Source of the DNA: Chloroflexota bacterium
GTDB lineage: Bacteria; Chloroflexota; Dehalococcoidia; Lucifugimonadales; UBA826
Length of the DNA: 64,000 bases
Direction: 5' to 3'
Assembly (NCBI GenBank): GCA_003228105.1
Contig: QGNN01000003.1
Span: 258 to 64,257 of the forward strand
Shown in pieces: positions 14,886 to 64,000 of this stretch (the stretch's first letter is position 1; every line of letters begins with the position of its first letter). The notes beneath the pieces are model-generated. The model searched no databases, was not told the DNA's origin, and saw only the letters and a program-made list of their open reading frames with translations. A program made the translations under genes and the position numbers.

Positions 14886-14922
14886 ATTTTTGTCTCATTG
14901 GCCACAAAACATTTGATAGGCT

Positions 14923-21136: not shown

Positions 21137-22807
21137 CTACATTTTTTCGGGCTTGCTCATGCCCATCAATTCTAGGCAGTTGACGAGCGTCAGTTTCGTT
21201 GCAGCACATAATTTTAACCTGGCCTTACTCAATCCAAGGTCTTTTTCATTTTCTGAAATGACTCTGCAATTCTGATAAAAGTTATGAAAAGCTGTCGCCA
21301 GTTCCAAAGAATAGTGTGGGAGGTGGTGAACTTCATAAGTATCTGCAATAGCATTAATTATGGAAGGCAATTCCAAGATTTTATTGATTAGCTGAATCTC
21401 AGATTCATGATTCAATATAGAAACCGAACCGTTTGAATAGTTTATCTTCTTTTCAACAGCTAGATCCAAGATGCTGCATATTCTCGCATGGCCATACTGA
21501 ATGTAATAAACGGGATTTTCAGAAGACTGGCTTTTAGCCAGATCTAGGTCAAAATCAAGCTGAGTTTCGTGGGCGCGGGATAAAAACATGAACCTGCAAG
21601 CGTCGGTTCCAATTTCATTTACTAGTTCTATCAGTGGAACAACGTTACCTTCTCGCTTGGAAAGTTTTTCAGTGGTTTCTCCTTTTTTGAACCGGACCAT
21701 TTGAACCAGAATTATTTCTAGATTGTCAGGGTCACAGCCGAGCATTTTCATAGCGGATTTGAGCCTTGGTACCTGACCCTGATGATCCGCACCCCAGACG
21801 TCAATAACAGTATCGAATTTTCTATGAATAAATTTATTGTAATGATATGCAATGTCAGTAGAAAAGTAAGTGGGGGTCCCATTATTTCGTATCAGAACAT
21901 TATCTTTTTCTTCCCCTAAATTGCTATTTAGTAGCCATGTCGCACCGTCTTTATCGGCCACATAACCCGTCTTTTTGAGCAGGCCTATGCATTTCTCAAA
22001 TTGACCGTCTTCAAAAAGACTTTTTTCACTGAACCAATTGTCGAAATCGATGTGCAGCGATTCAATATCCTCCTTAATGCCCTCTATCATTAGTCGAATG
22101 CCAGCTTTGCCTAGGTCTGACAATGCTCCAGGGTCATCAGTGTCATAGTTAGCACTATCTAAATCCCTTATTTTTTCAGCAACTACTACTACATCTTCAC
22201 CAGGATACGAGTCTTCCGGGAGTTCGACATCATTCCCGAGTGATTGCATATATCTAGCAACCAGGGATCGATTGAATTTATCTATTTGGGCTCCGGCATC
22301 ATTCAGATAGTATTCTTGTTCAACTTCGAATCCAGCGGACTTTAATACATTGGCAAGCGTACTACCGATCACAGCCCCTCTGGCATGTGCTACGTGTAAT
22401 CTTCCAGTCGGGTTGGCACTTATATATTCAACTTGAATTTTTTTGCCTTTCCCAGCATTAGTAACTCCGTAACTTTTTGGATCAGACAGCATCTGATCAA
22501 CCTGGTCTTGCAACCATTTTCTACTTAACACAAAGTTGAGGAAGCCTGGATTAGCCACCACTACATCTTCTAGAAGCGTATTTTTTTTCAGGTATTTAGC
22601 AAGCACATTGGCTATTTCTATAGGGCTTTTCTTCAATGGTTTTGCTAGCTTCAACGGAAGACTTGAAGCATAGTCACCGTGCTCAGGGTTTTGTGGTCTT
22701 TCAACCGCGGTGTCTCCGATTTCAGCGGCAGGTATAAGATTGTCCTGTTGGGCCTCTTCAAAGGCTTTTTGAATCGAAGCGCTGAGAATCTCAGGAATGG
22801 TTGTCAA
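21137..22807 (-). CDS. argS: arginine--tRNA ligase
   Basis: 556 aa with a class I HIGH-type motif (HVAHARG), a KMSKS-like motif (KLSKREG) and a C-terminal DALR anticodon-binding-like region. Confidence 0.95.
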   Translation of the reverse strand: MTTIPEILSASIQKAFEEAQQDNLIPAAEIGDTAVERPQNPEHGDYASSLPLKLAKPLKKSPIEIANVLAKYLKKNTLLEDVVVANPGFLNFVLSRKWLQDQVDQMLSDPKSYGVTNAGKGKKIQVEYISANPTGRLHVAHARGAVIGSTLANVLKSAGFEVEQEYYLNDAGAQIDKFNRSLVARYMQSLGNDVELPEDSYPGEDVVVVAEKIRDLDSANYDTDDPGALSDLGKAGIRLMIEGIKEDIESLHIDFDNWFSEKSLFEDGQFEKCIGLLKKTGYVADKDGATWLLNSNLGEEKDNVLIRNNGTPTYFSTDIAYHYNKFIHRKFDTVIDVWGADHQGQVPRLKSAMKMLGCDPDNLEIILVQMVRFKKGETTEKLSKREGNVVPLIELVNEIGTDACRFMFLSRAHETQLDFDLDLAKSQSSENPVYYIQYGHARICSILDLAVEKKINYSNGSVSILNHESEIQLINKILELPSIINAIADTYEVHHLPHYSLELATAFHNFYQNCRVISENEKDLGLSKARLKLCAATKLTLVNCLELMGMSKPEKM

Positions 22808-22837: not shown

Positions 22838-23896
22838 CTATCCCGTGACGTGTATTGTAGGATCAGTGTCTGAAGGAGTGTAAACTTCCCCAATTATTTG
22901 ATTACTTAATGTGCCTGCCTCAGACAGCAATTGTTGTAATTTATCTGCCTTATCTGGGTTGACTGAAATCAATAGTCCTCCAGAGGTCTGGGCATCGGAT
23001 AAAAGGATTTTATCGTTTTCTGAGATTTCTTTATCCCACAACACCGTCGATTTTAGAGAAGCTAGATTCCGAATAGTTCCTCCCGGTGCTATTCCTTGTT
23101 CCAATAGATCGGTTGTGCCCTCTATCACCGGTACTTTGGACTTATAAATCCGGGCACCTAGCCCACTGCCCTCCATCATTTCTCTCAGATGCCCCAACAA
23201 TCCAAAACCTGTAACGTCAGAGCAAGCGTTTACGCCAACTGAAATCATACATTCGGAGGCGGATTTGTTAAGCGCAGCCATAATTGCAACAGCATTTTCA
23301 AGAACCTCAGCAGCTACTTTTTCTTGTTTTCCGGCAGTAGTTATTATCCCAGTACCTATAGGCTTTGTTAGCAGCAAAAGATCTCCAGATTTGGAGGTGC
23401 TGTTTGCCGTTTGTGAGCCAGGGTTTACTATTCCTGTTACTGAAAGTCCATATTTCGGTTCAGCATCAACCACACTGTGTCCTCCGGCTATTACTATGCC
23501 GGCTTCGAGTGCTTTTGAGGCGCCACCTTTAAGGATTTCCCCCAGAATCGACATGTCTAAATCTGAAGGGAAACCAACCACGTTTAATGCCGCGATGGGT
23601 TTGGCTCCCATTGCATAGACGTCACTTAGGGAGTTAGCAGCAGCTATTTGTCCGAAGATAAATGGGTCATCCACAATCGGGGGAAAAAAATCGACTGTTA
23701 AAACGACAGCCAAATCATCGTTTAACTTGTAAACGGCGGCGTCATCACTAGTCTTTGTTCCAACTAGTAGGTTTGGATGTGTCATATCTGGCAGCTGGCT
23801 CAGAACTTGAGCCAGGTCGTCTGGACTTAGTTTAGACGCTCAACCTGCGCACGATGCAAGTTCTGTGAGCCTAACTTTTTCATGTTGATGCTGCAT
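22838..23896 (-). CDS. selD: selenide, water dikinase (selenophosphate synthetase), Sec-containing
   Basis: The track ORF (22838..23785) lacks the catalytic N-terminus. Reading upstream in frame gives MQHQHEKVRLTELASCAG-UGA-ASKLSPDDLAQVLSQLPD, which matches the SelD G-[C/U]-G-C-K-ISP loop. UGA at 23840..23842 falls on the catalytic Cys position. ATG at 23896. Confidence 0.85.
23795..23815 (-). promoter_or_regulatory. candidate bacterial SECIS stem-loop in selD mRNA
   Basis: Perfect 8-bp stem CUGGCUCA/UGAGCCAG with 5-nt loop AGUUC. It starts 25 nt after the UGA, and a loop G lies about 34 nt downstream of the UGA. Confidence 0.55.
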
Positions 23897-24036
23897 TTTT
23901 AGTATCCTAGCTGATGAAATTATTAACTATTATATCTGTATCCCGGTTGCTATATAGCACAAAGCGGAAATTCACTATTCGGATATCATTAGGTCGCATC
24001 ATTTTTTGAATAAGTAAAAAGGTTTTTATTTTACAG

Positions 24037-62670: not shown

Positions 62671-64000
62671 CTAATTTTGTAGGCTATATGCTATGGAGGC
62701 TATTAAAGTATCATCGTCACTCTGCAGTACCGTTCGAAGATCAAATATGACCGCGTCATCTTCAATTCTAGGAACTACAGGGCTGGTTGCAGTTCTAATT
62801 TTCAATGCAAAATTCTCAGGATTCTTTACTGTTAATTGAATTCCAAATGAATCCATCGTTTCTCCCGGCAAACTACCACCACCGATCGTCGACTTTGTTC
62901 CAATTACTTTTGCTGAATACAGGTCACTGCTAGGGATTTTGGTAGATATATTGTGAGCCCTTGTACGGAGATCATCCAATTCAGCCGATATCATCTGCCA
63001 GACAGGGATTTTGTTTTGAGCCTCTTCTTTAAGGTAGTGAATCAACGTGGTAGTCAATGCAGCCAAATTCATTTTGTCTATTCTAAAAGCTCTGGCTAAA
63101 GGATGATTCGATAGTTTCTCTATATAGCTTTTCCTACCTATAACTATTCCTGCCTGAGGCCCACCTAATAATTTATCTCCTGAAAAGAAGCATAAATCAG
63201 CTCCTGCCGCTATGCTTTCCTGAGGCCGTGGTTCTGGCGCTAGACCATATTTGGTTGTATCCAATAATGAGCCACTACCCACATCGTGTAGAACAGGAAT
63301 TCCCTTGCTGGTCCCTAGGTTTGAAAGGTCCGAAATTGAAGGGGTTGCCGTGAATCCAATTATCTTGAAATTGCTCGAATGTATAGAGAGAATTACTCCA
63401 GTATCTTCATTTAATTCCCTTTCATAATCCATCACATAGGTTCTGTTAGTAGTGCCGACTTCAGTCAGAATTGCGCCACTTTGCTTTAAAACATCTGGTA
63501 TTCGGAAACCGCCACCGATCTCCACCGCTTCAGACCGTGAAACTATTACCTCTTTCCCTAACGCCAGTGCTGAAAGCCCCAGCATTATAGCTGCAGCATT
63601 ATTGTTGACCACAAACCCTGCCTCAGCTCCAGTTAGACTAGATAGCAGTTGGGAAATCCTCGCTTGCCTAGATCCTCGCTTTCCAGAACCTAGTTCTAAT
63701 TCCAAATCGCTGTAGGTTTTAGAAGAATCAACAGCTGCCTCCATACTTTCAGTACTTAAAGGAGCACGCCCGAGGTTGGTATGAATGACTACGCCGGTTG
63801 CATTTATAACGGTTCTGGGCCAATGGGACCAGTTTCTCTTTACGTGATCTGAGACTTGGTTGGATATTTCCAATATTGTTGGAATTTCTGATTCACTATC
63901 AACGGTTGACCTTATATGACTTAATTGTTCTCTTATTAGATCTGTTACGGCTTCTGCTGAAAACTCGGTCATCAATTCGGAAATTCGCGTGTCTGAAAGC
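62671..64000 (-). CDS. selA: L-seryl-tRNA(Sec) selenium transferase, probably truncated by the window edge
   Basis: The FSGDKLLGGPQAG PLP-lysine block and VGTTNRT are family-typical. The frame stays open upstream of the track start (63975) to position 64000 (..LSDTRISEL-MTEF), so the true N-terminus probably lies outside the window. Confidence 0.9.
   Translation of the reverse strand, partial: LSDTRISELMTEFSAEAVTDLIREQLSHIRSTVDSESEIPTILEISNQVSDHVKRNWSHWPRTVINATGVVIHTNLGRAPLSTESMEAAVDSSKTYSDLELELGSGKRGSRQARISQLLSSLTGAEAGFVVNNNAAAIMLGLSALALGKEVIVSRSEAVEIGGGFRIPDVLKQSGAILTEVGTTNRTYVMDYERELNEDTGVILSIHSSNFKIIGFTATPSISDLSNLGTSKGIPVLHDVGSGSLLDTTKYGLAPEPRPQESIAAGADLCFFSGDKLLGGPQAGIVIGRKSYIEKLSNHPLARAFRIDKMNLAALTTTLIHYLKEEAQNKIPVWQMISAELDDLRTRAHNISTKIPSSDLYSAKVIGTKSTIGGGSLPGETMDSFGIQLTVKNPENFALKIRTATSPVVPRIEDDAVIFDLRTVLQSDDDTLIASIAYSLQN

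Follow-up and report, generated by a model that had tools for sequence, protein, structure and literature searches.

Organization of the selD locus

The stretch of DNA analysed here (64,000 nucleotides, called the window below) belongs to the MAG of a marine SAR202 bacterium (Chloroflexota), with a size of 1.62 Mb, assembled in 52 contigs and 88.7% complete. The minus strand of the window carries selD at 22838..23896, a frame of 352 codons followed by a TAG stop (22840..22838), which starts with an ATG at 23896..23894 and contains a single in-frame UGA at 23842..23840, read here as selenocysteine (Sec). When this TGA is translated as U, the extended frame gives MQHQHEKVRLTELASCAG-U-ASKLSPDDLAQVL..., 352 residues in total. 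The Sec codon (23840..23842, minus strand) specifies residue 19, the last position of a C-A-G-U motif, and is aligned with Cys17 of E. coli SelD. The 18 N-terminal codons located 5' of the UGA, MQHQHEKVRLTELASCAG (23843..23896, minus strand), are left out by a standard ORF call. Indeed, as had been noticed in the original prediction, the standard ORF list contains only 22838..23785 on the minus strand, a truncated selD of 315 aa that starts at Met38 (MTHPNLL), lacks the catalytic loop and corresponds to the usual output of a gene caller. The two starts, 23896 and 23785, are 37 codons apart. On re-reading the sequence, all the coordinates initially assigned to selD, its UGA and its hairpin turned out to be correct.

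A Shine-Dalgarno-like AGGA (23905..23908, minus strand) precedes the ATG at 23896 by 8 nt, and the ribosome-binding site CAGGATA to which it belongs is kept at the same distance from the ATG in related genomes. At the other end of the gene, argS (21137..22807, minus strand), taken from the ORF list and named from a reading of its translation, follows selD in the same orientation, 30 nt after the stop codon of the latter. Judging by this spacing, argS and selD are probably co-transcribed.

Features of the extended SelD protein

The selD equivalog model TIGR00476 matches residues 9-316 of the extended protein with 390.3 bits, against a cut-off of 125, and NF002098 matches residues 5-350 with 370.3 bits, against a cut-off of 299. 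Both alignments start upstream of the TGA; in particular, the match from residue 9, 5' of this codon, supports the initial proposal that the extended frame is a full-length SelD. The protein contains the two expected domains, AIRS (PF00586) at residues 51-157 and AIRS_C (PF02769) at residues 169-339.

Among solved structures, the best match is SelD of E. coli (PDB 3u0o, 2.4e-77), and this alignment puts U19 on Cys17 and K22 on Lys20, so that the UGA does fall on the catalytic cysteine, where it had been predicted. In E. coli SelD, the residues Asp51, Asp68, Asn87, Asp91 and Asp227 have ATP/metal-binding roles. All five are identical here in the pairwise alignment, within the segments SDDAAV, TVDFF, AANSLSD and SDVTGFG. 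The second-best structural match, SelD of Aquifex aeolicus (5.4e-71), also has its active-site residue on U19. From these sequence comparisons, the gene is predicted to encode a selenide, water dikinase (selenophosphate synthetase, SelD).

Conservation of the in-frame UGA and of the surrounding codons

A scan of one genome per species retrieved 80 selD loci, among which a close set is formed by 11 SAR202/Dehalococcoidia MAGs from independent studies (L017-L027), with 65-98% identity. The TGA is present at the same codon in all 11 close relatives, which supports the in-frame UGA as a real feature of the gene. The N-terminal peptide located upstream of the TGA is likewise conserved in 11 of 11 relatives, and stop codons sit just upstream of the shared selD ATG. 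When these relatives are aligned with the window sequence (12 sequences), the 18 codons preceding the TGA show 4, 3 and 17 variable columns at codon positions 1, 2 and 3, respectively, and the 18 codons following it show 6, 3 and 13. Since variation is biased to the third position on both sides of the TGA, this stretch behaves as a coding sequence under purifying selection.

Over the whole set, the catalytic column of selD is TGA in 66 of the 80 loci and a cysteine codon, TGC or TGT, in the other 14. Within the genome itself, TGA ends 214 of the 989 long ORFs, thus this codon has not been reassigned. Collectively, the conserved TGA, the coding signature around it and the normal use of TGA as a stop make an error, a pseudogene or a reassignment very unlikely.

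A hairpin downstream of the UGA

A predicted bacterial SECIS hairpin is located at 23795..23815 on the minus strand, 27-47 nt downstream of the UGA. It is composed of a perfect 8-bp stem, CUGGCUCA/UGAGCCAG (23815..23795), and an apical loop AGUUC (23803..23807), the latter being separated from the UGA by 32 nt. The loop G (23806) is the 34th nucleotide after the UGA, in agreement with the spacing first proposed. The hairpin alone folds at -12.7 kcal/mol; the 58 nt that start from the UGA fold at -17.9 kcal/mol, which, for the window sequence alone, represents a modest excess of stability over shuffled sequences (z = -2.0). The bSECIS model allows a loop of 3-9 nt, an upper stem of 4-16 bp, a G in the first two loop positions, a UGA-to-loop distance of 16-37 nt and an MFE <= -7.5 kcal/mol (PMC13188914). 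With a loop of 5 nt, a stem of 8 bp, a spacing of 32 nt, a folding energy of -12.7 kcal/mol and a G-U at loop positions 2 and 3, the selD hairpin lies within all these limits, though its spacing is near the upper one.

In the 12-sequence alignment, 94% of the cells of the 8-bp helix are paired, and shifting the 3' partner by 1-3 columns lowers this proportion to 8-47%. At four of the eight pairs, both partners have changed; in the LMQVLQQL variants, for instance, C-G is replaced by U-A, and U-A by G-C. The hairpin, originally described as SECIS-like, is thus both conserved and covarying in the relatives. Furthermore, the residues encoded by its two arms change together (A/M/S with S/Q/R), and the RNA constraint therefore appears to shape the protein.

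The hairpin was also compared throughout the larger set of selD genes. Of the 66 Sec-type genes, 26 have a core CA(A/G)GUN(C/U)UG that starts exactly 30 nt 3' of the TGA, and they come from phyla that include Bacillota, Myxococcota, Planctomycetota, Abditibacteriota and Marinisomatota; hairpins of other kinds, at 16-21 nt, occur in further Sec-type genes. A perfect-stem hairpin at <= -7.5 kcal/mol was found in none of the 14 Cys-type selD genes. Over the 60 nt that follow the catalytic codon, the mean MFE is -18.6 kcal/mol in Sec-type genes versus -12.4 kcal/mol in Cys-type genes (p = 1.4e-4).

Several other structures were considered in the same region. A weaker CGUCU/AGACG stem, which had been pointed out as lying nearer to the UGA, is indeed present on the minus strand at 23818..23838 (23838..23834 with 23822..23818), directly 3' of the UGA, and folds in the window. 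A role for it as an alternative element did not hold up, as most relatives have lost its second pair, located at wobble positions, without any compensating change; on this sequence evidence, the stem is probably non-functional. RNAalifold also draws a possible outer helix, pairing GGU/AGC around the UGA with GCU/GCC downstream; there is hardly any variation in its columns, and no pair in which both partners have changed. Inside selD, about 130 nt after the UGA, a hairpin followed by a T-run (23691..23713, minus strand) resembles a terminator but was discarded: its stem is broken in most relatives and is thus a chance product of the VDFFPP codons. Finally, an Rfam scan of 23700..23950 at E <= 10 gave no family match. 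Rfam is not known to include a curated general bacterial SECIS family, therefore this null result is uninformative.

Selenocysteine machinery of the genome

The same contig carries selA, which codes for selenocysteine synthase, about 39 kb from selD. On the minus strand of the window, it occupies 62671..64000 and is cut by the window end; the full ORF extends over 62928-64298 of the contig (C3). Its product matches TIGR00474 at full length with 534 bits, against a cut-off of 268, and contains the Pfam domains SelA (447 bits) and Se-cys_synth_N. The presence of selB, on which the original prediction had made its case depend, was also confirmed: a full gene is located on another contig (C1:8890-10740, 349 bits), and its product combines the EF-Tu-like domains with the winged-helix domains SelB-wing_2 and SelB-wing_3, which are of the SECIS-binding type.

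The case of selC is less direct. No complete tRNA-Sec was found in the MAG by ARAGORN or RF01852, so that the expectation of a selC gene was borne out only in part, by a 5' fragment of 36 nt at a contig end. This contig (C32) terminates, at 23377-23412, with GGGAGCGGTTGAGGCCTGGTGGTCTCTGCGGACTTC, a sequence of 36 nt that corresponds to the beginning of tRNA-Sec, has one substitution relative to selC of the congeners and is cut inside the anticodon loop. selC is present in 10 of 10 genomes of the same genus, and congeners have an intact tRNA-Sec with the anticodon UCA. In congeners (L105-L107), the complete selC, with a length of 97-98 nt, is located just downstream of a small thioredoxin-like ORF, which shows a WCQPC motif on reading of the sequence, and about 2.8 kb further on lies a sequence matching the start of contig C38. 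Since the far flank continues on C38, this contig and C32 are neighbours, and synteny with the congeners indicates that selC is present but broken by the assembly. The set of tRNA genes called in the MAG is incomplete, with neither tRNA-Trp nor tRNA-Tyr, which fits the completeness estimate of 88.7%.

A single selD was found in the genome, in the TGA form, and a search of the genome for a second, Cys-type SelD able to bootstrap the system found none. One further match (C10:10125-10886, plus strand; L121:1492-2496), of 334 aa, scores 117 bits with HypE, 100 bits with ThiL and about 94 bits with SelD and has no Cys/Sec loop. It was rejected as a second SelD, being an AIR-synthase-related protein without the N-terminal loop and below all family cut-offs. 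Selenouridine synthase (TIGR03167) was not detected in the genome, and selenophosphate therefore most likely serves Sec synthesis.

Other candidate selenoprotein genes

The genome was scanned for in-frame TGA codons flanked on either side by coding potential and accompanied by a SECIS-like hairpin, and a Pfam check was then applied. This procedure yielded at least four further candidate genes in which a Pfam domain spans the in-frame TGA. Three of these are a rhodanese whose active-site position would be Sec (C9:33307-34053, plus strand; ITY-U-QGGIRA), an Rdx/SelW-like protein (C1:15714-15989, plus strand) with a CVPU motif, and a DsbA-like protein (C23:25998-26660, minus strand) with the sequence FDFV-U-PYVY. 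Their predicted hairpins lie 17-21 nt after the TGA, versus 32 nt in selD.

Another candidate is a homologue of the catalytic subunit of ferredoxin-thioredoxin reductase (FTR; C18:5989-6417, plus strand, L108; PF02943, 76 bits), which contains two in-frame TGA codons in the motif CP-U ... CPC ... CI-U. These two codons fall where the redox-active disulfide is located. Among 31 related genomes, 18 bear the gene, at 61-99% identity, and each of them retains the two TGA codons. A two-Sec FTR has been reported from GOS ocean reads (PMC2398784); the gene described here corresponds to it, and this match would assign the reported FTR to SAR202.

An additional candidate ORF (C2:39047-39472, minus strand) shows a good coding score around an in-frame TGA (GNVIDV-U-NNIF) and weak NHL/beta-propeller matches. 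On the other hand, a possible M-F-C-G-Q-U extension at 14895-14897 (minus strand) of the window failed the filters; its five upstream codons score -1.8, which is weak evidence against it. Taken together, selA, selB, the fragment of selC and no fewer than four further redox genes with an in-frame TGA indicate that the lineage uses selenium and that the Sec trait is in active use.

Alternative readings of the UGA

A first alternative takes the 315-aa ORF, starting from Met38 (23785), as the true gene, with a loop that is either dispensable or supplied in trans and an upstream frame that is non-coding. This ORF is what table-11 ORF finding returns, and the public predictions of close relatives agree with it. 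However, the 18 codons on each side of the TGA are conserved as protein, with variation at third positions, and the alignments with the selD HMM and with the E. coli structure begin at residue 5-9, thereby including the catalytic Cys17/Lys20 loop. The ATG at 23896 is preceded by a ribosome-binding site that is conserved, and neither a second SelD nor a separate loop-bearing protein, from which the missing loop could come, was found in the genome. The possibility of a downstream start had been raised at the outset; when confronted with the orthologues, it is the extended start that is supported in 11 of 11 relatives, and we consider the shorter gene to be highly improbable.

In a second alternative, for which the draft state of the MAG (52 contigs) could be invoked, the TGA would be an assembly or sequencing error, or a nonsense mutation in a pseudogene. 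Yet the same TGA recurs in 11 related species whose genomes were assembled independently and, in the set that covers several phyla, in 66 of the 80 selD loci. It is followed by a covarying hairpin, and the gene is otherwise intact and under purifying selection. At the level of sequence comparison, this explanation is effectively refuted already, and we leave it practically no weight. Alternatively, the UGA could be decoded as something other than Sec, through near-cognate read-through with Trp or Cys or through a lineage-wide reassignment, the hairpin merely stimulating the process. The incomplete selC of the assembly would be in line with this proposal, but TGA serves as a regular stop in 214 of the 989 long ORFs, a dedicated Sec machinery is encoded, and the congeners have an intact tRNA-Sec with the anticodon UCA. 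Moreover, the codon falls on the Cys/Sec catalytic position of a family in which Sec is well established. Decoding by another amino acid thus seems very unlikely.

Proposed decoding mechanism

The reading that we retain, with a high level of confidence, is a Sec-decoding selD with a functional SECIS. Translation would start at the ATG 23896, and the UGA at codon 19 would be bypassed as a stop. The hairpin would recruit the SelB-GTP-Sec-tRNA(Sec) complex to the ribosome, leading to the insertion of Sec. The predicted product is an enzyme of 352 residues with a flexible Gly-rich loop, C-A-G-U-A-S-K, in which Sec would act as the catalytic N-terminal residue. SelD would then make selenophosphate, to be used by SelA for the conversion of Ser-tRNA(Sec) into Sec-tRNA(Sec). 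We infer the actual insertion of Sec, the binding of SelB to the hairpin and the activity of the enzyme from the features described above. Since the only SelD found is the Sec form, SelD should depend on its own product.

A further idea is one that we regard as speculative and rather doubtful: the selD hairpin could represent a distinct, selD-specific class of SECIS shared across phyla, whose spacing tunes decoding. This class would be characterized by the core CA(A/G)GUN(C/U)UG, which coincides with the codons of the conserved peptide (L)AQVL and lies at a distance of exactly 30 nt from the UGA. In this genome, the same SelB would have to read both the selD hairpin and the predicted hairpins of the other selenoprotein genes, at 17-21 nt. 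If so, the large distance between UGA and loop could serve to keep selD decoding inefficient, or to make it respond to selenium, and would thereby tune the autocatalytic loop of an organism in which the only SelD found requires Sec.

Consequences for annotation

The main value of these observations concerns annotation. The best 120 public protein predictions all have 238-328 aa, and among them, nearly all those at 92-99% identity have exactly 315 aa. For close relatives, the public SelD predictions are cut to 315-324 aa and are devoid of the catalytic loop, thus the very region that includes the Sec residue is missing. The warning that gene callers would mis-annotate this gene is therefore justified, all of these best 120 predictions being shortened. 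A truncated SelD may thus have entered the automated metabolic reconstructions of SAR202, from which the selenoprotein trait could then be absent. The use of selenium by this abundant deep-ocean lineage agrees with marine selenoprotein surveys (PMC2398784). As for selD itself, the case brings no new biological principle.

Comparison with known systems

SelD is often itself a selenoprotein (PMC4561486). It constitutes the second most widespread prokaryotic selenoprotein family (PMC13188914) and, together with SelW-like proteins, the most widespread selenoproteins in ocean surface metagenomes (PMC2398784); these reports bear out the initial statement that Sec-containing SelD is known in many bacteria. 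The selD gene described here is an ordinary member of this family, and since Sec-SelD is among the most widespread bacterial selenoproteins, there is little new in its occurrence. Examples of Sec-SelD are those of Aquifex aeolicus (PDB 2yye/2zod) and Haemophilus influenzae. The A. aeolicus protein is a natural selenoprotein that was crystallised with Cys replacing Sec. With the bacterial Sec-SelDs, the present protein shares the TIGR00476 family, the position of Sec in an N-terminal Gly-rich loop, a SECIS hairpin within the coding sequence and the dependence on selA, selB and selC. It differs by its host, an uncultured SAR202 lineage (Dehalococcoidia, Chloroflexota). Two small peculiarities are the CxxU (C-A-G-U) motif and a hairpin placed at the long end of the spacing range. 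In the GOS survey, the CxxU motif was present in about 5.6% of single-domain Sec-SelDs (PMC2398784).

E. coli SelD (3u0o) is aligned over residues 6-337 and has the same domain architecture, but its Cys17 is encoded by UGC and no SECIS accompanies it, whereas the corresponding codon is UGA here. The closest point of reference for the hairpin is the SECIS of E. coli fdhF, the model element of bacteria, which has the apical core CAGGUCUG and a loop G-U at +23/24 from the U of the UGA. The two structures are alike in being stem-loops inside the ORF, immediately downstream of the UGA, with G-U in the first loop positions. As in fdhF, the upper stem of the selD hairpin is rich in G/C and carries an A-U pair that closes the loop, with the core CA(A/G)GUUCUG. 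On the other hand, counting from the U of the UGA, the loop G-U of selD is located further away, at about +37/38, and no bulged U is evident in its upper stem.
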